A DNA stretch of 42,109 nt from a virus. Lineage: Duplodnaviria > Heunggongvirae > Uroviricota > Caudoviricetes. Shown piece after piece: positions 3,243-31,881 of the stretch (its first letter is position 1; each line of letters starts with the position of its first letter). The stretch is from the IMG/VR virus record IMGVR_UViG_2724679238_000007, positions 1 through 42,109 of that record. One strand, given 5' to 3'. The position numbers and the translations under genes were made by a program. Below the pieces are notes generated by a model. That model was not told the DNA's origin and did no database searches. It saw only the letters and a list, made by a program, of their open reading frames with translations.

Positions 3243-3330
3243 CCCGCTGCTAAACGGGTGGCAGGACGTGACGGGGTTAGCAGACTGGCACGAATGAAAC
3301 CAGCAGGCCGAAGCCTCCCCACCACGCCCC
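3243..3330 (-). ncRNA. c4: c4-type antisense RNA, copy 1 (boundaries approximate)
   Basis: Non-coding stretch between the operator/promoter and icd. It contains CACGAATG (3289-3296) presented between a CTGG/CCAG stem, complementary to CATTCGTA present both upstream (3402-3409) and at the icd RBS (3218-3225). It also contains a UUCG hairpin and a 7-bp CTGCTAA/TTAGCAG stem. Confidence 0.45.
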
Positions 3331-3507
3331 ACCATAATTTGGGCGTAACGCGGTTTTACGGACATAAAAATACCGCAATATCGGAAATCTGCGGTTGTCC
3401 GCATTCGTATTCAGGCTGCTAAACCCGGTCGCAGAATTTGCTACGACGGCGGAACTATAAGCCTGAACAACAGGAAGATCAATAGTCTGGCGTTCGATGG
3501 TAGTTTA

Positions 3508-6230: not shown

Positions 6231-6306
6231 TGGTGACCCCTACCGGACTTGAACCGGTGACCGTGCGATTATGAGTCGCCAGCTCTAACCACTGAGCTAA
6301 AGGGCC
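6231..6306 (-). tRNA. tRNA-Ile2 (anticodon CAU, ileX-like; Met not excluded from sequence alone)
   Basis: 76 nt cloverleaf read by hand: acceptor GGCCCTT/AGGGGTC, D-arm TAGCTCAGTGGTTAGAGC, anticodon loop CTCATAA, T-loop GGTTCAAGTCC, encoded CCA; very similar to E. coli ileX as recalled. Confidence 0.75.
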
Positions 6307-7721: not shown

Positions 7722-7797
7722 TGGCGATGGTGGGTGGATTCGAACCACCGACCAGTTAGTTAACAGCCAACTGCTCTAACCGCTGAGCTACACCATC
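7722..7797 (-). tRNA. tRNA-Asn (anticodon GUU)
   Basis: 76 nt: perfect acceptor GATGGTG/CACCATC, D-arm TAGCTCAGCGGTTAGAGC, anticodon arm GTTGG-CTGTTAA-CTAAC, T-arm GGTGG-TTCGAAT-CCACC, discriminator G plus CCA. Confidence 0.8.
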
Positions 7798-23275: not shown

Positions 23276-24091
23276 ATGAGCAAAAACTTTTTTCAATCCG
23301 GGGCATTTTTGGGGAATGGCCTGTCCCGTTTCGCTTTAAACGCTGATCCGGTACAGCTGATGGAATCTGCCCGTGCAAGTGCCCAACCGCCAGTAGAACC
23401 GGAGATTAATAATAATCCGGAACCGGCGGCACAGATTAACGAGAATGTTCAATCTGACCCGGCCCCTGATCAAATCCTGGAGGGGAAAGACGGTAAAGAA
23501 TGGACTGTCGAACAGGCGCACCAGATGATTCTGGAAGCGGCAAATCGAAGTGCTATGCAGAATGCGTTGAGTAATGCGGCTGATGCCGTTTTCGCCTGGG
23601 CTGATAGCGGTGATCTGACTTTCGACTCTCTCGATGGTTTTGTTCAGGCTATCGCTGGCATCTCTGATGATGACGACTCCGAAGTTACAGAAGAACAGGA
23701 TGATGCCTATAACGAAGCATGGGCAAATGTTGCTGACTTCCTCGCAGCATGTGGTGTAGATGATGACCTGATCGAAGCATTGGCTGACGATGAAGACGAC
23801 GACGCAGCTGCTGATGTCGGTTCCGCTATTGCTGGTTTGGATAGCGATGACCGCGACGAACTGGAAGCTGCGTTTGTTGTTGCTGGCACTTCTGATGAAA
23901 TGCTAACCGAAGCATTTAAGAAAGTTGTTCGTAACGGTGAGATCAAACTTATCCGTAAACGCCTGCGTAAAAAACGTCTGACAGCGGCTCAAAAATCGGC
24001 GCTGAAAAAAGCGCGTCGTAAAGCCCAGACCGGTGCGGCAAAACTGGCCCGCAAAAAGTCAATGAAACTGCGCCGTAAGCGCCTCGGCTAA
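23276..24091 (+). CDS. hypothetical acidic protein with a strongly basic C-terminal tail
   Basis: 271 aa; Asp/Glu-rich middle (DDDDSEVTEEQDD..., DDEDDDAAADV...) then KRLRKKRL...RRKRLG; followed by a terminator. Confidence 0.5.
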   Translation: MSKNFFQSGAFLGNGLSRFALNADPVQLMESARASAQPPVEPEINNNPEPAAQINENVQSDPAPDQILEGKDGKEWTVEQAHQMILEAANRSAMQNALSNAADAVFAWADSGDLTFDSLDGFVQAIAGISDDDDSEVTEEQDDAYNEAWANVADFLAACGVDDDLIEALADDEDDDAAADVGSAIAGLDSDDRDELEAAFVVAGTSDEMLTEAFKKVVRNGEIKLIRKRLRKKRLTAAQKSALKKARRKAQTGAAKLARKKSMKLRRKRLG

Positions 24092-24098
24092 AGGAGGA

Positions 24099-24125
24099 GG
24101 CCGGAGAGCTCCGGCCTTTATCTTG
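24099..24125 (+). terminator. intrinsic terminator
   Basis: GGCCGGAG-agct-CTCCGGCC hairpin followed by TTTAT. Confidence 0.6.
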
Positions 24126-24126
24126 A

Positions 24127-24708
24127 ATGGCACCTATACCTTTTGGAGTTCACGGCCAGGCTGATGGTGTATCACCATGCCTGAAAGTTACTCTGACTAA
24201 CTCTAAGTATCAGGTTACTGGATATATCAGCCAGGGGGCGGCAATGAACATGGCCCAGAATTGGGAGGCTCCTTTTACTGGTATGTCCATGGGTTCTGTT
24301 GCTGGTGCCTTCAGTGGTTTTGCGCAGGTTGGTACTGAAACAACGTCGGTTGCCCGTTGGAACAGCTTAATGGTTTGGGAAGGGGGTACTCCGCCGACGT
24401 TCACGCTGCCAGTAACTTTCATTGCTTTATTTGACCCGTTTACGGAGGTTTCAGGAGCTATCGCCGCGTTGTCAGCGATGATTAGCCCGGAACTTAAAGA
24501 TGCCAGTATTGGTGGTCGTATCCCGGAGCGTGTGACGTTAAATATTGGTCGCCGGATCAACATCATTGATGTTGCTATCCAGGACCTAAGTTTCGATCTC
24601 GATGCGCCCAGGGACAGCAACGGGCATTTCCTGAAAAATACAGTCAACCTCCAGTTGACAGGTTCTTCGATATATAACAGCTCCGATATCATTCGGGCGT
24701 TCCAGTAA
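24127..24708 (+). CDS. hypothetical phage structural protein
   Basis: 193-aa ORF in the late structural cluster; an internal start (MNMAQNW...) is possible. Confidence 0.4.
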   Translation: MAPIPFGVHGQADGVSPCLKVTLTNSKYQVTGYISQGAAMNMAQNWEAPFTGMSMGSVAGAFSGFAQVGTETTSVARWNSLMVWEGGTPPTFTLPVTFIALFDPFTEVSGAIAALSAMISPELKDASIGGRIPERVTLNIGRRINIIDVAIQDLSFDLDAPRDSNGHFLKNTVNLQLTGSSIYNSSDIIRAFQ

Positions 24709-24719
24709 AAGGATTTTAT

Positions 24720-25229
24720 ATGGGACACAATAACACTAAGGGAAACCGTAAATTTATTAAGGGCCGCTATACTGCCAACGCGGCCAAAGGCGAACGACTG
24801 GTATCGTCTGAATTCCAGCTCACTTTTGCAGGCCATGAAGATATCAGCGTACTGGTTCGCACATCGCAAATCCCTGAAATGACCCGAGAGGATGTGGAAG
24901 ACTATGGTCCGAATGGTGTGAAGTTCAACCAGCACGGACCAATCCGTAACTCCGGGGAAATCCAGGTCCAGTGCGTGGAGACTATCGAAGGTGATATTCT
25001 TCAATTCATTAAAGATCGCATTGCGGCGAAGGACTATGTTGATATCACGATGGCTGCAACTCCTGAATCCAAATCCTCAGGGGTTAAAGCTGTGACAAAA
25101 GCTGCTACAACAATTGAAATGTTGGACTGCAAAATCTACAGTGATGCAATCGACTTTAGTACCGAAGATGTGACTGCCGCTGTGCGCCCGTCACTTCGTA
25201 TCGTCTACAACTGGATTGATTGGGATTAA
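24720..25229 (+). CDS. hypothetical phage structural protein (possibly tail tube-like)
   Basis: 169 aa, SD AAGGA; followed by a strong terminator; function is a guess from size and context. Confidence 0.4.
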   Translation: MGHNNTKGNRKFIKGRYTANAAKGERLVSSEFQLTFAGHEDISVLVRTSQIPEMTREDVEDYGPNGVKFNQHGPIRNSGEIQVQCVETIEGDILQFIKDRIAAKDYVDITMAATPESKSSGVKAVTKAATTIEMLDCKIYSDAIDFSTEDVTAAVRPSLRIVYNWIDWD

Positions 25230-25250
25230 GAGTCATCCCTTGTATTTTAA

Positions 25251-25275
25251 AGCTCCTTCGGGAGCTTTTTTTATA
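25251..25275 (+). terminator. intrinsic terminator
   Basis: AAAGCTCC-ttcg-GGAGCTTT hairpin followed by TTTTTTTA. Confidence 0.75.
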
Positions 25276-25400
25276 ACTATTTTATATAAAAATGCATCGA
25301 TAACATTGTCTGGAGTTTTATGTTAGATTATTAATGTTCTAATAAACTACAATTATTGAGGTAGATGTTTGTGCCTGTACTGTTAAAGGGGGACTCTAAA

Positions 25401-25997
25401 ATGGCTGTGATTCCAATGTCGTACTCCCCGGGCACTGTCGCTCGTCGATTTTCGATCCTGGACGGTGTAATCATCCAGGGGGTGCTTTACCAGGTTATAT
25501 GGGATTCCAAAACCCCATTTGCGGCTGTAATAGAGGCTGCGCCTTCTGTTATCGATGGTGATATGCGGCATAAGGTTGTCGCTACTCTTGAACTTCAACG
25601 TCGCCCGCAACTTGAAGGCGTACTGGTAAGGAAGTTCTGGGAGGATAGCGATGTTGCCCAGATTGAAGGTATCGTGGTTGATGGAACTGTCCGGGATGTC
25701 GGTTTAGCTACTTTTGTTTACGAAACCGTAGCCTCAAAAGCTGGTGTTGTTTTGCTCAGTGATAATGAGCAATACGAAGGTGGAAAAGCTCTTTGGCAAC
25801 ACATCGCCCGTCGCTCTTCCGAGCTAAAAGTGTTTATCCTCGACACCGATGCCGCTCAGTATTACCCGTTTGACGGCGAACGTGTTTGCTATGACGGGGT
25901 AAGTATTCCTGAATCCGAGATATGGAGTGAACACCCAGATCGAAGTAAGCATGGGGTTGTTCTGGTTGCTGAATCTATAACTGGAAAGGCGGCATAG
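25401..25997 (+). CDS. hypothetical protein
   Basis: ATG at 25401 with a G-rich SD; 198 aa; preceded by an AT-rich region containing a degenerate C1-operator-like core (TTCTAATAAA). Confidence 0.45.
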   Translation: MAVIPMSYSPGTVARRFSILDGVIIQGVLYQVIWDSKTPFAAVIEAAPSVIDGDMRHKVVATLELQRRPQLEGVLVRKFWEDSDVAQIEGIVVDGTVRDVGLATFVYETVASKAGVVLLSDNEQYEGGKALWQHIARRSSELKVFILDTDAAQYYPFDGERVCYDGVSIPESEIWSEHPDRSKHGVVLVAESITGKAA

Positions 25998-26184
25998 CAG
26001 TGCAGTAAAAAATTCCTTGCTCCTTGACAGAGGAGAGGATTAATCTAAGTACGCTAAGCATAGGTATGGCCCCGGTTAATGTTAAGCGTTGTGCGGGACG
26101 CATAATGTTTACTGGGGCTTTCTTCTATCTGCTTTTCGGGTAATACCTGAAGCTGATAGCCTCAAGCACACCGCAGCGGGTGTA

Positions 26185-26436
26185 TCAATGTCTGGTTTTT
26201 TTTCTATAGAAATCACCTGGAAGGGTGAATATCCACATCAGAAGACATGTTGCAGCAAACATGATCCCTAATGGCCAGAAGATGCCAAAAAAAATCATTA
26301 TCCAAAAACGAACCCACCAGGCCATTTCTGCATTGGCTCGCAAAATATATCGACTTAATGCGTATATCAGTCCACCAATTAGTATATAGATGGGAATAGA
26401 TGCCAGGATAGTCATCGCGTTAGTCTCAATGAGCAT
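26185..26436 (-). CDS. small Trp-rich integral membrane protein (hypothetical)
   Basis: 83 aa, two or three predicted TM segments; lies downstream of the lom-like terminator and would need its own promoter. Confidence 0.3.
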   Translation of the reverse strand: MLIETNAMTILASIPIYILIGGLIYALSRYILRANAEMAWWVRFWIMIFFGIFWPLGIMFAATCLLMWIFTLPGDFYRKKTRH

Positions 26437-26454
26437 AACGAATATCGCCAGAGC

Positions 26455-26486
26455 AATGTATAAATCCCTCTGCGCCGGGCAGAGGG
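26455..26486 (-). terminator. intrinsic terminator of the lom-like gene
   Basis: Perfect 8-bp stem CCCTCTGC/GCAGAGGG with a 5-nt loop, followed on the minus strand by ATTTATACATT; 9 nt after the stop. Confidence 0.6.
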
Positions 26487-26495
26487 ACTAAATAG

Positions 26496-27011
26496 TTAAA
26501 ATCGGTAACCGACACCAAGCATCCAAATGCTATTGCTTAGATCACCTGGTTTAGAACGTTCATACGAGAGATCAACAGCAAACTGCGGAGCTGGGTTAAA
26601 TTGAAGCCCAAGTCCATAAGCAAAATCGGTTCCAAAGCCAGCATATGACTGTCCATTCAGTTTTGCTGTTGCATCCGCATGGCTTAAACCCACCAAACCG
26701 TATGCACTCAGCAATTCATTGAATCTGTATGATGGACCAAAAGTAAATGAGGCATACTCAACCTTGGCTTTGGCGGCATTCCATAGGTTTGTGTTTGACT
26801 TTTCGTAAGTGACCGAAGCTAATCCACCCCACGTAGAATCCATTTCGTAGCGATATTTAATATTCACGCCTTTTGGATCTTTTATATCTCCGCCTTTAAC
26901 CGTTGCGCTTCCTTGGGCAAAGTCTAAGGAGAGTGTGTGCTGATATGCGGAGGCAGTCCCAGCAACCCCCAAGGCACATGCCAGAAGGGCCGTTAAAACT
27001 ACTTTTTTCAT
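26496..27011 (-). CDS. Ail/Lom/OmpX/PagC-family 8-stranded outer-membrane beta-barrel protein
   Basis: 171 aa; signal peptide MKKVVLTALLACALGVAGTASA; alternating amphipathic strands; C-terminal ...LGVGYRF ending in aromatic Phe. Confidence 0.8.
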   Translation of the reverse strand: MKKVVLTALLACALGVAGTASAYQHTLSLDFAQGSATVKGGDIKDPKGVNIKYRYEMDSTWGGLASVTYEKSNTNLWNAAKAKVEYASFTFGPSYRFNELLSAYGLVGLSHADATAKLNGQSYAGFGTDFAYGLGLQFNPAPQFAVDLSYERSKPGDLSNSIWMLGVGYRF

Positions 27012-27106
27012 GGAAAAAGTTACCTATAAAAACGTTAAAAATAATACTGGTGACAAAATAGTGTGTATTGAGCGTTAAATACACGTAAAGATTCTATCAT
27101 TCGCGA

Positions 27107-27949
27107 TCATCCGCGAAAACCAGTTGGAATATAAAATTCCTTTTCTTTTCTTGTAGATAGGACCATATCCAGAGCTTCGTTTACCGTCATGCAATGCGGC
27201 AGATTATCGAAGTTTGATATCCCGCCCATATCAGGAGAACGCTTGTTCTTCAGGTAAGCATATTTCCGCGCTGCCGCCTCTACTTTCTGCTTGAACTCAT
27301 GTTTTTGAGAGCGTTTTTTGGATAACCGCAGATTGTCAGCCTTTGCTTTTGCCTCAGCGATCCATGAAGTCAATTTTTTGAGTCTGGTCGTTCCGGCATC
27401 GCCGGAAACTGATCTTTTTGTTTTTTTAATTTGTGACTTCTTATTCTTTATTGCCACGTCATCCTGACAGGGGGAGTGGGTATCATTTTGACATGGGGGT
27501 GTGGATAAAAAATCAAATAAAGCCAATGTCTTAGCGAGAACGGCTTTAACCTTGGTTGCGGCTGAAGAGATCTTTAATTTGCTTTCAATTAGCGCATTTT
27601 TGGCTTGTTGTGCGAAGGCCAAAAAGGATGGTGTAAACCGGTACAGGTTAGCGCGGCGTTCACGGTGATCGCCGATAACAATCTCTACCGACAGGATTCC
27701 TTTGTTTACAGCTTCACGGAATGCGCGAACGACGGTTGATTGGCTATAACCAGTTTCTGCCGCGATCATGCGGTGAGGCTTGTGAATGAAGTATTCACTG
27801 GTTGTTGCCGCGAGATTTGCACATTGCGACAGGATATGCCCGGCGCTACGGGATAGACCGGAGTGTGTTACAAAGCAGGCCAATTCATAGCCAGAAAAAG
27901 TAAAATCGCTCATCGTTATACAGCTCAGGAAAGTGACTTTAGCCAGCAT
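27107..27949 (-). CDS. repL: RepL-like lytic replication protein (candidate)
   Basis: 280 aa; HTH-like segment (MIAAETGYSQSTVVRAFREAVNKGIL) and basic C-terminal half; immediately downstream of kilA under a C1 operator, the arrangement of the P1 kilA-repL lytic replicon. Confidence 0.5.
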   Translation of the reverse strand: MLAKVTFLSCITMSDFTFSGYELACFVTHSGLSRSAGHILSQCANLAATTSEYFIHKPHRMIAAETGYSQSTVVRAFREAVNKGILSVEIVIGDHRERRANLYRFTPSFLAFAQQAKNALIESKLKISSAATKVKAVLAKTLALFDFLSTPPCQNDTHSPCQDDVAIKNKKSQIKKTKRSVSGDAGTTRLKKLTSWIAEAKAKADNLRLSKKRSQKHEFKQKVEAAARKYAYLKNKRSPDMGGISNFDNLPHCMTVNEALDMVLSTRKEKEFYIPTGFRG

Positions 27950-27978
27950 TACAATGCTGGTGGTTCTTACTACGTCTG

Positions 27979-28779
27979 TTAGCGCGTTGCCGCGACAGGT
28001 ACCAGCACACCAGCATCAAGCAATCGCTTCATTAGCCACTGCTGACCTTTGCCGGTTATACGAGTCGTGAAAGAAATCCTGCTTCCATTGCTTGTATCGA
28101 TCACGGTTTCTTTGAGGGTGAAATACCCACGGGATATGTATTCTTGTTTTGGGACGTTCCTGCGTTCACCGGTTGCGATCAGAATTCCGTTATCACGCAA
28201 CCAGGTGAAGAGATAGTTTTGGCCCAGGCCGAGCACTTTGGCATAGTTGCCGATTAGAACCCCGCTGGCGGTAGCAACGCGTTCGGCGAATTCGACTTTA
28301 GGTGCATCCATCAGCATTTTTTGCTCCAGCCGTTGCTTTTGCTCTGCCAGGTCGGCAGCCAAACGGAGAGCTTCTGGGAGGCTCTGCGGAATAGCAGGTT
28401 GTAATCTTCCAGCTCGATAGTCGATAAATGTCTGGTTTACCTTCAGCCGAAACGCGGGAGAAATCCAACCAGCGTACTCCACTGCGAGCAATTCATGGGC
28501 AAAAGTGCCGCCGCCACGGCCTTCGAACGAAACTATGCAATTCTGCATAGTTTCTTTTTCAAGCTCTTCGATGAGCTGTTTAGCTGACAGCGTTCTTAGC
28601 CATTGAGCTGGCGCTTTATGGGCACCGAGTCCGCTCGCTCTGTGTAGAGCATTAAGGTTGTAACGGCCAGCGCGGTCGGTCGTAATTTCAACACCACAAA
28701 TAACAGGCAGAGTGGTTGAAGGATCGACATTTTGATGAAGGTTTGATATATTCATATCCGCATTGAATGTTTGTTGCAT
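27979..28779 (-). CDS. kilA: KilA protein (KilA-N plus KilA-C domains)
   Basis: 266 aa; N-terminal KilA-N-like region (GRYNLNALHRASG...AQWLR) and C-terminal KilA-C region shared with both Ant copies. Confidence 0.75.
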   Translation of the reverse strand: MQQTFNADMNISNLHQNVDPSTTLPVICGVEITTDRAGRYNLNALHRASGLGAHKAPAQWLRTLSAKQLIEELEKETMQNCIVSFEGRGGGTFAHELLAVEYAGWISPAFRLKVNQTFIDYRAGRLQPAIPQSLPEALRLAADLAEQKQRLEQKMLMDAPKVEFAERVATASGVLIGNYAKVLGLGQNYLFTWLRDNGILIATGERRNVPKQEYISRGYFTLKETVIDTSNGSRISFTTRITGKGQQWLMKRLLDAGVLVPVAATR

Positions 28780-28848
28780 TTTTTCTCCAAATTTGCATCA
28801 ACCTTCAATCACCAGCTCGAAATGGTGATTCTTTGCACTTAGAAAACG

Positions 28849-28865
28849 AAATTTATTAGAGCAAA
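28849..28865. promoter_or_regulatory. C1-repressor operator upstream of kilA-repL
   Basis: AAATTTATTAGAGCAAA is a 16/17 reverse match to the C1 consensus. Confidence 0.7.
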
Positions 28866-28942
28866 TTTTTCTGGCTCGATCCAGATCGGGTTGGTCGATC
28901 TGCTCAGAAACCTGCCAGTTTGCTGGCAGGTTTTTTCTTTTG

Positions 28943-30240: not shown

Positions 30241-30328
30241 CCCGCTGCTAAACAGGTGGCAGGACGTGACGGGGTTAGCAGACTGGCGATTGTGAAACCA
30301 GCAGGCCGAAGCCTCCCCATCACGCCCC
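30241..30328 (-). ncRNA. c4: c4-type antisense RNA, copy 2, with an altered recognition octamer (boundaries approximate)
   Basis: Same architecture as copy 1, but the loop octamer is CGATTGTG (30287-30294), complementary to CACAATCA at 30216-30223 (icd RBS) and 30400-30407. Confidence 0.45.
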
Positions 30329-30518
30329 ACCATAATTTGGGCGTAACGCGGTTTTACGGACACAAAAATACCGCAATATCGGATATCTGCGGCTGTCCGC
30401 ACAATCATTCAGGCTGCTAAACCCGGTCGCAGAATTTGCTACGACGGCGAAACTATAAGCCTGAACGATTAAAAGGTCAATATGATGCGAAAAGATAGCA
30501 TTCGCGACTTAAAAATAC

Positions 30519-30816: not shown

Positions 30817-31338
30817 ATGATTCTTATGTCTAAAAAGTATACTTTATGCGCTCTTGTTGTATCTGCAATTCTTCTTTCTGGGTGTCAATCTAGCGGTGCT
30901 GATTATGCTGCCGATGTTTATGATACCGCTCAATTGAATTCGAAGCAGGAAACAAAGACAGTCAATATTATCTCTGTGCTTCCAGCTAAAGTGAAAGTTG
31001 ATAATAAAGCTAATAAAGAAGCGGCACAGACATTTGGTGCGGTACTGGGAGCTGTTGCTGGGGGCGTTGCCGGTTATAATGTTAAAGGCACATCGACACT
31101 GGGTGCTGTAGCTGGCGGTACTGGTGGTGCGGCTCTTGGTGCAGCGGCTGGTTCTTTGGTTAGTGATAAAACAATTGTTGAAGGTGTTTCACTGACTTAT
31201 AAAGAAGGAACTAAGGTGTTCACTTCAACTCAAGTTGGTAAAGCATGCCAGTTTACAACGGGGCTTGCTGTGCTTATTTCAACTAAAGATAATGAAACTC
31301 GAATTCAGCCAAATGCTACTTGTCCAGAAAAGAAATAA
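30817..31338 (+). CDS. lipoprotein with a glycine-zipper (GxxxG-rich) segment
   Basis: 173 aa; lipobox LLSGC; segment GAVLGAVAGGVAGY...GAVAGGTGGAALGAAAGS; AT-rich codon usage. Confidence 0.6.
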   Translation: MILMSKKYTLCALVVSAILLSGCQSSGADYAADVYDTAQLNSKQETKTVNIISVLPAKVKVDNKANKEAAQTFGAVLGAVAGGVAGYNVKGTSTLGAVAGGTGGAALGAAAGSLVSDKTIVEGVSLTYKEGTKVFTSTQVGKACQFTTGLAVLISTKDNETRIQPNATCPEKK

Positions 31339-31341
31339 TTT

Positions 31342-31881
31342 ATGAATAAAATTATTTTATTTCTAATCTTTTCTACGTTTAGTGTAGGCACTGCCTTGGC
31401 TAACTCGTTGCAAAGTCAAATTGCTGCTATTGCTCAAGCGGAAAATGAAGGGCGAGCTAAAGAGCAGCAAGCTGAGGATGCCAGAAAAGAACTTATTCGC
31501 CAACAAGCACAAGCTGAACGTATTAGAAGAGAAAAAGCAGCATCTGCCGCTGCTGCACGCGAAAAACAGCGTGTTGCTGCAGAAAATGAACGTAGAGCGA
31601 AACGAGAAGCCGAGCTAGCAAATGACAAGAAGCGAGATCAAGCTTATGAGGATGAGCTTCGCAAGCTGCAACTCGAAAGCATGAAACTCGAACTGCAAGC
31701 AAAAGCGGCTCGTGTCCAGCGAGAAAACGATTTTATAGAGCAGGAGTTGAAGGAGAGAGCAGCTAAGACAGATGTAATTCAGTCTGAGGCTGATGCAAAT
31801 AGAAATATTTCTACAGGAAGTAAAGATTTACTGCAAAGCGAAGGAAAAGCTAGAGAGAAGAAAGCTAGCAGTTGGTGGTAG
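31342..31881 (+). CDS. secreted, highly charged coiled-coil protein
   Basis: 179 aa; signal peptide ending ALA-NS; long Glu/Arg/Lys/Ala/Gln-rich helical region; starts 3 nt after the lipoprotein gene. Confidence 0.55.
   Translation: MNKIILFLIFSTFSVGTALANSLQSQIAAIAQAENEGRAKEQQAEDARKELIRQQAQAERIRREKAASAAAAREKQRVAAENERRAKREAELANDKKRDQAYEDELRKLQLESMKLELQAKAARVQRENDFIEQELKERAAKTDVIQSEADANRNISTGSKDLLQSEGKAREKKASSWW

Follow-up and report, generated by a model that had tools for sequence, protein, structure and literature searches.

The window, by which we mean the whole stretch of 42,109 nucleotides, is a P1-like phage-plasmid of the SJ46 / E. albertii type. Between its tail genes (22, 21, pmgG and bplB) and repL lies a gene for a predicted outer-membrane beta-barrel protein, called here the barrel gene (Table 1). 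The first-pass annotation had placed it between the structural genes and repL, and the ORF map together with the annotation of SJ46 agrees with this; both ORFs of the locus (171 and 83 aa) have exactly the coordinates given at first. repL lies upstream of the barrel gene and has the same orientation.

Table 1. Features at the repL-proximal locus of the window
Feature	Position	Strand	Basis
repL (lytic replication initiator; contains oriL in P1)	27107..27949	-	ORF; SJ46 and P1 annotation
840-bp exchangeable module	26297..27136	.	blastn breakpoints against P1-like relatives
95-bp repL-to-lom spacer with candidate sigma-70 promoters, without terminator-like site	27012..27106	-	relaxed hexamer scan
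Barrel gene: CDS, 171-aa precursor, Ail/OmpX/Lom-family 8-stranded outer-membrane beta-barrel (predicted)	26496..27011	-	ORF, Pfam, PDB matches, AlphaFold2, Foldseek
Signal-peptide coding part, aa 1-22, MKKVVLTALLACALGVAGTASA	26946..27011	-	read from sequence
GC-rich terminator-like hairpin, imperfect U tail	26465..26487	-	9 nt past the stop codon of the barrel gene
C1-operator-like half site ATTGCTCTGGCGATATT (putative)	26441..26457	-	read from sequence; between hairpin and small ORF
83-aa Trp-rich small membrane protein (PHROG 3772)	26185..26436	-	ORF; PHROG E 4e-39
hok/sok-type leader/antisense region (Rfam sok RF01794)	26003..26171	-	cmscan
210-aa convergent ORF, long allele of P1 pmgF (PHROG 7522)	25365..25997	+	PHROG E 2e-146

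The barrel protein matches Ail_Lom (Pfam: PF06316) with 81.1 bits against a cutoff of 23, OMP_b-brl (Pfam: PF13505) with 88.2 bits against a cutoff of 28.7 and the PHROG 108 'Lom' family with an E-value of 3e-47. In a PDB sequence search Y. pestis Ail was found with an E-value of 2e-29 and OmpX with 4e-21. The AlphaFold2 model (pLDDT 86, pTM 0.78) consists of a signal helix and eight strands (residues 23-37, 46-55, 60-74, 80-95, 100-117, 120-140, 143-152 and 158-169), and a Foldseek search with this model gave Ail as the best structural match (TM 0.86-0.90), followed by OmpX (TM 0.89). The family match is far above chance. All of these methods agree with the first reading of the gene product as an 8-stranded protein of the Ail/Lom/PagC/OmpX family, and among the relatives named there Ail is the closest in both sequence and structure.

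The signal peptide has an n-region with KK, a hydrophobic core (max KD15 2.40) and an A-S-A motif, and it is modelled as a helix (residues 2-16, low pLDDT) preceding the barrel. The aligned mature Ail begins just past this region. Cleavage is likely after A-S-A and before YQ, judging from the residues, which gives a mature protein of about 149 aa. The C-terminal GYRF is invariant across the homologues (33-34 aligned), and the barrel-defining residues are invariant and common to the barrel protein and 33 homologues.

Module exchange downstream of repL

By blastn, the breakpoints of similarity (26296/26297 and 27136/27137) are identical against three P1-like relatives (L002, L003 and L005) and delimit the 840-bp module. 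Its borders are sharp, one inside the last 10 repL codons and the other inside the 83-aa membrane ORF, so that the module contains these 10 codons, the spacer, the lom-like gene, the hairpin and the 5' half of the small ORF. In its place there are 217 bp in L005 and L002, and about 1.4 kb in RCS47 that include a transposase gene; a global alignment within the module showed scattered similarity only. The C-terminal 10 aa of RepL in the window differ from those of P1 and of the majority allele. A gap of 51 bp separates repL from the small ORF in L005 as well as in at least 301 PLSDB plasmids; the barrel gene thus lies between direct neighbours of related elements, which is the placement of a moron.

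We counted the states of this slot in about 644 PLSDB plasmids that have the repL flank. At least 301 have the short form (217 bp; repL followed by an 81-aa small ORF), 99 have rlfA-rlfB and about 36 (~5%) have the lom-like gene. These carriers comprise 24 plasmids from E. albertii, seven from E. coli and five from Salmonella. Of the E. coli genomes with the flank, 9 out of 486 carry the barrel gene, and the same gene context was found in five IMG/VR contigs. The gene is therefore far from conserved in all P1-like genomes, which supports its cargo status. Reference P1 itself is without the gene, in line with the first-pass annotation, and has rlfA-rlfB in the same place. The rlfA-rlfB-pmgF stretch has been published as a region of low GC that varies among P1-like phage-plasmids (PMC9603915), and the slot has several unrelated fillings across these elements.

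Since just ~36 of the ~644 plasmids carry it, these data support the barrel gene as cargo, moved by module exchange in the rlfA-rlfB-pmgF variable region. The gene had been proposed as a cargo insertion, of which the cargo status and the polymorphic presence hold. The clean insertion does not, for what we see is a replacement of 26297-27136 that also swaps the last 10 repL codons together with the first half of the small ORF. We are highly confident of the identity of the gene together with its cargo status.

Every examined carrier from E. albertii, E. coli and Salmonella, and likewise the IMG/VR contigs, has an intact ORF. The carriers from these three hosts differ by 0-2 aa and, relative to the window, show four synonymous and 1-2 non-synonymous changes. 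Judging by the few amino acid differences and the excess of synonymous over non-synonymous changes, the barrel gene is maintained.

A transposon- or IS-borne origin was rejected, as the module has neither a transposase ORF nor terminal inverted repeats. The only repeat candidate is an 11-nt direct repeat (10/11; 27052-27062 and 26486-26496), comparable to chance repeats in the region. A donor search outside P1-like elements found no donor, with the nearest homologues at most 46% identical. These belong to Arsenophonus (46%), Photorhabdus and Proteus and sit in lambdoid prophages or chromosomal ail loci, the closest Arsenophonus homologues occupying the typical moron site of a lambdoid prophage.

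The 83-aa ORF belongs to the backbone and is not cargo. It had been described as a Trp-rich membrane ORF, and it is hydrophobic with five W (6%) and two to three predicted membrane segments; with its PHROG assignment it is not an orphan. Its N-terminal 46 codons fall inside the exchanged module. Compared with the majority allele, the C-terminal 34 aa are near-identical, whereas the N-terminal half is about 25% identical. An 81-aa allele of this ORF follows repL in L005 and in most P1-like plasmids.

The sok match just downstream of the small ORF reaches 62.5 bits (gathering threshold 59; E-value 1e-11). A stem-loop 3' of the small ORF, considered as its terminator, is the first hairpin of this hok/sok-type leader according to Rfam. 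The hok toxin ORF is missing in the window, where the leader is followed by a 6-codon stub only; in L002 (MH422554) the homologous leader is followed by an intact 51-aa Hok/'MokW'. The left neighbour of the locus is the 210-aa ORF, which is 42% identical to P1 PmgF over 65 aa. PADLOC gave no match for the barrel protein, for the small ORF or for the 210-aa ORF.

Transcription signals and base composition

The barrel gene had been credited with a strong terminator of its own. The hairpin past its stop codon is indeed strong, with a stem of 9-11 bp (inverted repeat I11, 9/9 complementary, loop of 5) and a folding energy of -21.4 kcal/mol (z -3.4) for the 61-nt stretch that contains it. The tail that follows, AUUUAUACAUU, is an imperfect U-tract, and the consensus terminator scan did not call the hairpin because merely four T are present in the 8-nt tail.

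A relaxed hexamer scan of the spacer gave a candidate extended -10 (TGATAGAAT, 27091-27099) and a candidate promoter AATACA-17-TATTAT (27041-27069). The promoter candidates are weak, with 8-9 of 12 hexamer matches plus the one extended -10. The tool-based promoter scan found TCTACA-18-TATATT (27128-27157) as the sole site near the gene, and the region has fewer sites than its shuffles. The tool scan found no terminator on the minus strand between repL and the barrel gene. The barrel gene has a weak Shine-Dalgarno sequence, AGGT, which lies 11 nt before its ATG.

In P1 the annotated operator Orlf (ATTGCTCTAATTATAAC) lies between repL and the following gene, and the majority allele has its counterpart, ATTGCTCTAATCTGGAG, between repL and the following gene. 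The putative half site of the window agrees with the C1 operator consensus at 11 of 17 positions, the first eight exactly. A C1 operator scan allowing up to three mismatches found none adjoining the barrel gene, the nearest being at 28849-28865, upstream of kilA. A scan for PhoP boxes (KGTTTA-N5-KGTTTA, up to three mismatches) is uninformative, because its 144 matches are close to the ~113 expected and those upstream of the barrel gene are solely T-rich ones with three mismatches.

The GC content of the barrel gene is 44.8%, compared with an ORF mean of 47.3 +/- 2.5% in the window (z = -1.0), and its GC3 is 37.2% compared with 45.9 +/- 6.5% (z = -1.3), which ranks it 4 of 37 ORFs. The AT-rich stretch noted at first is thus present as a mild shift only. 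With a deviation of about one standard deviation the composition is nearly uniform with the neighbours, and we dropped it as decisive proof of a foreign origin.

Possible roles of the barrel protein

On this P1-like phage-plasmid the barrel gene is accessory and moron-like, and we propose that it serves the lysogenic conversion of the cell surface, a reading to which we give about an even chance. The gene arrived by homologous exchange of the 840-bp module, with ends inside repL and the small membrane ORF, in the recombination-prone slot just downstream of repL, which is filled by rlfA-rlfB in reference P1 and empty in most P1-like plasmids. The precursor would be exported by Sec via its signal peptide and inserted into the outer membrane by BAM through the C-terminal GYRF signal, and the barrel would then display four short, lineage-specific surface loops. 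Because the gene points the same way as the C1-repressed kilA-repL operon, with no terminator between the two, read-through during lytic growth is expected. In lysogens, the weak promoter candidates of the spacer may contribute further expression, and the hairpin probably ends the transcription unit.

The most likely outcome would be surface lysogenic conversion in the animal host, with Ail/Rck-like adhesion and/or complement evasion. Y. pestis Ail, the closest characterised relative, is an adhesin and a serum-resistance factor. This outcome would matter most in E. albertii, a bird-associated enteropathogen that accounts for the bulk of the carriers (24 of 36); P1-like elements are frequent in this species, above all in avian clusters (bioRxiv 10.1101/2025.09.12.675607). 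A specific host-interaction role is a tentative proposal, to which we give somewhat less than an even chance. Serum resistance or adhesion is argued from the family, and an Ail-like serum-resistance role is unproven because the vitronectin residues of Y. pestis Ail are not conserved.

An Ail-like role has a serious rival in phage exclusion, which has been reported for lambda Lom, although we hold this rival to be doubtful. The barrel would then be a phage-serving surface-exclusion or anti-phage factor that blocks the adsorption of competing phages or the non-productive re-adsorption of progeny to infected cells, made mainly by kilA-repL read-through in lytic growth, with low-level production in lysogens. 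Both the co-orientation with the C1-controlled lytic operon, with no terminator-like site between, and the loss of the host-ligand residues of Ail are consistent with this. However, P1 adsorbs to the LPS core, which a small short-looped barrel would not obviously mask, and the barrel protein itself has no PADLOC match. The occupant of the slot in reference P1, the PADLOC candidate defence pair rlfA-rlfB, and the strong defence against lambda-vir that followed expression of lambda Lom point to exclusion, and other small 8-stranded outer-membrane proteins blocked T7 adsorption (bioRxiv 10.1101/2025.02.28.640651). The Lom phenotype came from overexpression, though, and was lambda-specific (bioRxiv 10.1101/2025.02.28.640651), and the barrel protein lacks the long loops of Lom and shares 29-31% identity with it. 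An extended form of the exclusion reading takes the slot after repL as a defence or exclusion hot spot, held by RlfA-RlfB (PDC-M04) or by the barrel, which would act by adsorption block or superinfection exclusion when kilA-repL fires and not as a virulence factor; we consider this unlikely.

Alternatively, the gene could be an old backbone allele of one P1-like lineage, in which case the lom-less forms would have arisen by deletion and the sharp borders would be the mere result of recombination between alleles that diverged long ago. What flanks the gene within the module is indeed diverged from, yet homologous to, the majority allele and is not foreign DNA: the RepL C-terminus keeps the ...IP(T/A)GFRG ending, and the N-terminus of the small ORF keeps its topology and an SR..L motif. 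PLSDB showed no lom-less copy of the diverged allele, the composition is nearly backbone-like and no homologue above 46% identity was found outside P1-like elements. Such an origin is nevertheless improbable. The rarity of the gene (~5% of P1-like plasmids) and the near-identity of its copies across three genera argue for a recent spread, its closest homologues all lie outside P1 contexts (as morons of lambdoid prophages or as ail genes on chromosomes), and the slot is a documented exchange hot spot. The gene could also be intact yet a silent or neutral passenger without a meaningful phenotype. This would fit its weak Shine-Dalgarno sequence and promoter matches as well as its absence, at no known cost, from 95% of related elements. 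We find it highly improbable, given an ORF that is intact in every carrier examined, few non-synonymous changes and conservation of all barrel-defining residues.

The significance of the gene is modest because it is already annotated in databases and its class is well known. P1-like phage-plasmids occur commonly in E. coli and Salmonella and above all in E. albertii, an emerging bird-associated enteropathogen, and are watched mainly as carriers of resistance genes. A minority lineage, concentrated in E. albertii, also carries a predicted outer-membrane protein that would remodel the cell surface, in a slot known as an exchange hot spot. If serum resistance or adhesion were true, this would be a transducible virulence trait, and if a block of phage adsorption were true, it would add to the new evidence for Lom-type proteins as phage-exclusion factors.

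Comparison with known systems

SJ46 gp018 (YP_009293475, 'Lom outer membrane protein') is the same gene, with 98.8% amino acid identity (1-2 residues differ); it lies between repL and the small ORF as in the window, and its flanks agree as well. The PGAP entry 'Ail/Lom family outer membrane beta-barrel protein' of P1-like plasmids in E. albertii, E. coli and Salmonella is also the same gene. The barrel gene is unmentioned in the SJ46 paper, in a survey of 77 P1-like phage-plasmids and in a UK clinical survey, and no functional study or discussion of it was found in the SJ46 paper or in the surveys of P1-like elements consulted.

Y. pestis Ail (PDB: 3QRA, 3QRC, 2N2L) is the best match with 40-41% identity. 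Both proteins are 8-stranded with short loops and share strand and turn residues, although Ail is chromosomal and not phage-borne, and EL2 of the barrel protein is 4-6 residues shorter. F54, F68, S102 and F104 of Y. pestis Ail are critical for vitronectin binding and serum resistance (bioRxiv 10.1101/2020.09.23.310672). In the HMMER and MAFFT alignments these correspond to gap/T74, V84, K117/L118 and N119/gap, so that all four are changed or deleted in the barrel protein. We also compared the basic clusters of Ail for LPS recognition (R14, K16, K139, K144; R27, R51, H95, K69, K97, K99). Hand-mapped on the alignment, four of these ten residues are kept as basic or His (K47, K71, H111, K154) and six are lost (S35, T37, E85, D113, T115, S159).

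E. coli OmpX has the same precursor length of 171 aa, 35-39% identity and a TM score of 0.89. Against the OmpX equivalog (NCBIfam: NF006917) the barrel protein scores 116.9 bits, below the cutoff of 176, and OmpX is a core chromosomal gene whereas the barrel gene is accessory on a phage-plasmid. Salmonella Rck and PagC are further family members. Rck, encoded on a plasmid, makes cells resistant to complement (description of NCBIfam NF011777); against this 'resistance to complement killing' equivalog the barrel protein scores 79.6 bits, below the cutoff of 258.

Lambda Lom and the lambdoid Lom-like proteins (Gifsy-2, Fels-1) also belong to the family; they are encoded by prophages and are the archetypal 'morons' of lysogenic conversion. 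The barrel protein is only 29-36% identical to these Lom-type proteins. Lambda Lom has 206 aa and much longer EL1 and EL3, insertions that are absent from the barrel protein, and Lom genes adjoin siphovirus tail-fibre genes, whereas the barrel gene adjoins repL of a P1-like myovirus. The barrel protein does not qualify as an orthologue of lambda Lom, given its low identity to that protein, the absence of the long loops and the position beside repL. The P1 rlfA-rlfB genes are an alternative accessory filling of the same slot downstream of repL. RlfA-RlfB, a DUF3800 protein and its partner, are unrelated to the barrel protein and form a candidate cytoplasmic defence pair; they match the PADLOC candidate defence system PDC-M04A/B with E-values of 1e-95 and 1e-51.

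Family and setting of the barrel gene

ORF calling finds two minus-strand ORFs in the interval 26185-27011, at exactly the coordinates of the first-pass annotation: the barrel gene, which encodes a 171-aa outer-membrane protein, and a small 83-aa ORF. Their surroundings are listed in the table.

Features of the barrel-gene locus and other elements of the window
Feature	Position	Strand	Remark
C4-type RNA features, first set	3254-3339, 3408-3460	-	Rfam
Two tRNA genes	6234-6306, 7725-7797	-	Rfam RF00005, 62 and 72 bits
bplB, pmgG, genes 21 and 22		+	downstream, beyond 210-aa ORF
210-aa ORF	25365-25997	+	downstream; PHROG 7522
hok/sok-type leader	26003-26171	-	Rfam RF01794, 62.5 bits (gathering 59)
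83-aa small ORF	26185-26436	-	PHROG 3772
Exchanged module	26297-27136
Barrel gene (171 aa)	26496-27011	-
11-nt direct repeat (10/11)	26486-26496, 27052-27062		brackets barrel gene
Candidate extended -10 TGATAGAAT	27091-27099		95-bp spacer
Candidate promoter AATACA-17-TATTAT			95-bp spacer
Candidate promoter TCTACA-18-TATATT			across module border
repL	27107-27949	-	upstream of barrel gene
kilA	27979-28779	-	upstream of barrel gene
Consensus C1 operator	28849-28865		upstream of kilA
ant-type antirepressor		-	upstream of barrel gene
C4-type RNA features, second set	30252-30337, 30406-30458	-	Rfam
ORF with sub-threshold TraT match	30817-31338	+	GC3 0.24
DUF5384 ORF	31342-31881	+	GC3 0.31

The 171-aa protein matches the Pfam families Ail_Lom with 81 bits (cutoff 23) and OMP_b-brl with 88 bits, as well as PHROG 108 'Lom outer membrane protein' (E 3e-47). 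Searched against solved structures, its sequence comes closest to Y. pestis Ail (E 2e-29), followed by E. coli OmpX (4e-21) and lambda Lom (1.5e-13). The AlphaFold2 model, computed from 34 homologues, has a mean pLDDT of 86 and consists of an N-terminal helix (signal peptide) and eight long beta-strands; Foldseek aligns it to Ail with a TM of 0.86-0.90 (40-41% identity) and to OmpX with a TM of 0.89 (35% identity). At the N-terminus, MKKVVLTALLACALGVAGTASA/YQ is built like a Sec signal peptide, and the C-terminal G-Y-R-F and the family-invariant strand and turn residues are all kept. In every respect that could be checked the protein is therefore a member of the Ail/Lom/OmpX family, as first proposed. 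It is not orthologous to a named member; its NCBIfam equivalog scores are below the cutoffs for OmpX (116.9, cutoff 176) and Rck (79.6, cutoff 258).

The window is a P1-like phage-plasmid. Salmonella phage SJ46 (Punavirus SJ46) shares 95.5% identity with the 1.3 kb around the barrel gene, and Escherichia albertii plasmids match a 14-kb stretch of the window with ~98% identity over 90% of its length. The window also holds two tRNA genes, which are expected in P1-like genomes. Complete C4 antisense RNA genes occur in it twice, both accompanied by an a1/b1 target region (the hits to Rfam RF01695 and RF03163 all exceed the gathering score), which suggests two C4-type immunity modules ~27 kb apart.

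An exchangeable slot downstream of repL

We mapped the borders of the variable segment by comparing positions 24000-28900 with P1-like relatives using blastn. Homology stops at the identical two points, 26296/26297 and 27136/27137, in every relative lacking the barrel gene, and the slot between them, directly downstream of repL, measures 840 bp in the window. The commonest slot form is 217 bp long (for example in pEND_Eco 12053-2 and also MH422554), with repL followed by ~50 bp and then an 81-aa allele of the small ORF. The RCS47 slot has ~1.4 kb including a transposase gene. In reference P1 (NC_005856) homology is lost from 25272 to 27136 and pmgF, rlfB and rlfA are found there instead of the barrel gene. 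Eight low-GC regions of P1-like phage-plasmids have been described as highly variable, and the rlfA-rlfB-pmgF segment is one of them (PMC9603915).

The repL flank is matched by ~644 PLSDB plasmids. Of these, at least 301 show the short form and 99 carry rlfA-rlfB; the lom-like module is present in 35-36, namely 24 plasmids from E. albertii, 7 from E. coli and 5 from Salmonella. The gene is present in 9 of the 486 complete E. coli genomes with the flank and, in the same context, in five P1-like-size IMG/VR contigs; no close copy was found in the GTDB species-representative genomes. A lom-carrying P1-like segment also turns up in the E. coli ST2747 chromosome records NZ_CP007393 and NZ_CP007392 (~2.226 Mb), either as an integrated P1-like element or as an assembly artefact.

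The shared breakpoints and the minority presence bear out the earlier proposal that the barrel gene is cargo, and the short-form plasmids contradict its presence in all P1-like genomes, which had been named as counter-evidence. This status comes from the comparison with relatives and not from composition. The gene lies in what had been called an AT-rich stretch; its GC (44.8%) and GC3 (37.2%) are indeed lower than the means of the 37 window ORFs (47.3 +/- 2.5% and 45.9 +/- 6.5%), but only weakly so (z -1.0 and -1.3). Stronger outliers are two adjacent ORFs with the lowest GC3 in the window. One has a glycine-zipper motif and a sub-threshold match (23 bits, cutoff 31) to the TraT complement-resistance/surface-exclusion lipoprotein, the other is DUF5384, and both may be additional cargo with a surface or exclusion role, next to the c4-icd-ant region.

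Both module borders fall within coding sequence. The last 10 repL codons read ...STRKEKEFYIPTGFRG in the window and ...AKNKDNEQWGIPAGFRG in P1 and the majority, and the small ORF likewise diverges over its first 46 codons, while both genes remain intact. Thus the flanks within the module are old, diverged backbone alleles with the barrel gene between them, and the sharp borders are homologous-recombination junctions. Neither a transposase nor terminal inverted repeats were found at the module. The direct repeat, on the minus strand ACTATTTTGTC and ACTATTTAGTC, brackets the gene between a point 41 nt before the ATG and the stop codon; it may mark the original insertion or be due to chance, similar repeats being frequent in the region. 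The gene may have been inserted long ago into the window-type allele or lost from other alleles; PLSDB yielded no copy of this diverged allele without it.

The closest homologue outside P1-like elements has 46% identity. By exact-sequence look-up, the nearest Arsenophonus homologue is in a lambdoid prophage between tape-measure and minor-tail genes, which is a moron position, and a Photorhabdus homologue is chromosomal and paired in tandem with a second Ail/Lom gene. Carrier copies over three genera differ by 0-2 amino acids; measured against the window, there are 4 synonymous and 1-2 non-synonymous changes. Such near-identity points to recent spread with constraint acting on the gene.

Expression signals and the small ORF

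The barrel gene shares its orientation with kilA-repL, and the consensus C1 operator is placed upstream of kilA, like the one at P1's C1-repressed P53. Because the terminator scan found no terminator-like site between repL and the barrel gene, read-through from kilA-repL would be expected during lytic growth. The 95-bp spacer holds modest promoter candidates only, and the Shine-Dalgarno sequence is weak. The gene had been credited with its own strong terminator: a GC-rich hairpin of 9-11 bp does lie 9 nt past the stop (61-nt stretch folded, -21.4 kcal/mol, z -3.4), with AUUUAUACAUU after it; it is a plausible, though imperfect, intrinsic terminator. The P1 operator Orlf (ATTGCTCTAATTATAAC) and ATTGCTCTAATCTGGAG of the majority allele directly follow repL. 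The sole similar window sequence, ATTGCTCTGGCGATATT (11/17), is located past the hairpin, shortly before the small ORF, which is consistent with a barrel gene placed between repL and an operator that would control the small ORF.

The 83-aa protein is Trp-rich (5 W) with 2-3 hydrophobic segments. Its ORF is a backbone gene in most P1-like plasmids, absent as such from reference P1, and the exchanged module takes in just its 5' half. The N-terminal half of the protein has ~25% identity to the majority allele, with the hydrophobic topology kept, and over the C-terminal 34 residues the two hardly differ. Its pN/pS relative to SJ46 and an E. albertii copy is 0.4-0.8, from very few changes, and does not demonstrate constraint. 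A stem-loop considered as its terminator was rejected, as it is the first hairpin of the hok/sok-type leader immediately downstream (Rfam). In MH422554 (3814-4262) an intact 51-aa Hok ('MokW') comes after the homologous leader, whereas the window leader has a 6-codon stub in place of the toxin ORF, running into the convergent 210-aa ORF; it looks like an orphaned antisense/leader remnant or a decayed addiction module. Over its N-terminal 65 aa, the 210-aa ORF shares 42% identity with P1 PmgF (98 aa); it is a long pmgF allele with a C-terminal extension of ~130 aa.

Possible functions and relation to known proteins

Y. pestis Ail, the nearest characterised protein, is an adhesin and serum-resistance factor in which F54, F68, S102 and F104 are reported to be critical both for serum resistance and for binding vitronectin (bioRxiv 10.1101/2020.09.23.310672). 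In the 171-aa protein these residues align to gap/T74, V84, K117/L118 and N119/gap, only 4 of Ail's 10 basic residues for LPS recognition are kept, and extracellular loop 2 is 4-6 residues shorter. The barrel is thus conserved, with ligand-facing loops that are lineage-specific. A host-interaction role is not transferable from Ail; it is plausible from the family and the E. albertii bias, and we give surface conversion for host interaction slightly less than an even chance. Phage exclusion, which we consider less likely, would fit the strong defence against lambda-vir reported for lambda Lom expression and the block of T7 adsorption by other small barrels (functional-metagenomics preprint, bioRxiv 10.1101/2025.02.28.640651). 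It would also fit the other slot occupants, as P1 RlfA and RlfB are matches to PDC-M04A/B, a candidate defence system in PADLOC (E 1e-95 and 1e-51), and the position after repL may be a hot spot for defence. That the gene is a neutral passenger seems improbable. The rlfA and rlfB genes, at 1741-2909 in reference P1 (NC_005856), have long been annotated as 'possibly replication-linked', and RlfA is DUF3800.

The gene is already annotated as 'Lom outer membrane protein' (SJ46 gp018) and 'Ail/Lom family outer membrane beta-barrel protein' (PGAP); the papers on SJ46 and P1-like phage-plasmids that we consulted do not discuss it. It belongs to the classic prophage-borne outer-membrane morons. The Lom proteins of lambda, Gifsy-2 and Fels-1 have just 29-36% identity to it, and the long loops of Lom are absent. 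To what was known of the gene we add the exact module borders, the slot-state frequencies and the E. albertii bias, together with the isolation of the clade (at most 46% identity to any other sequence), the loss of the ligand residues of Ail and a defence-type cargo as the alternative.
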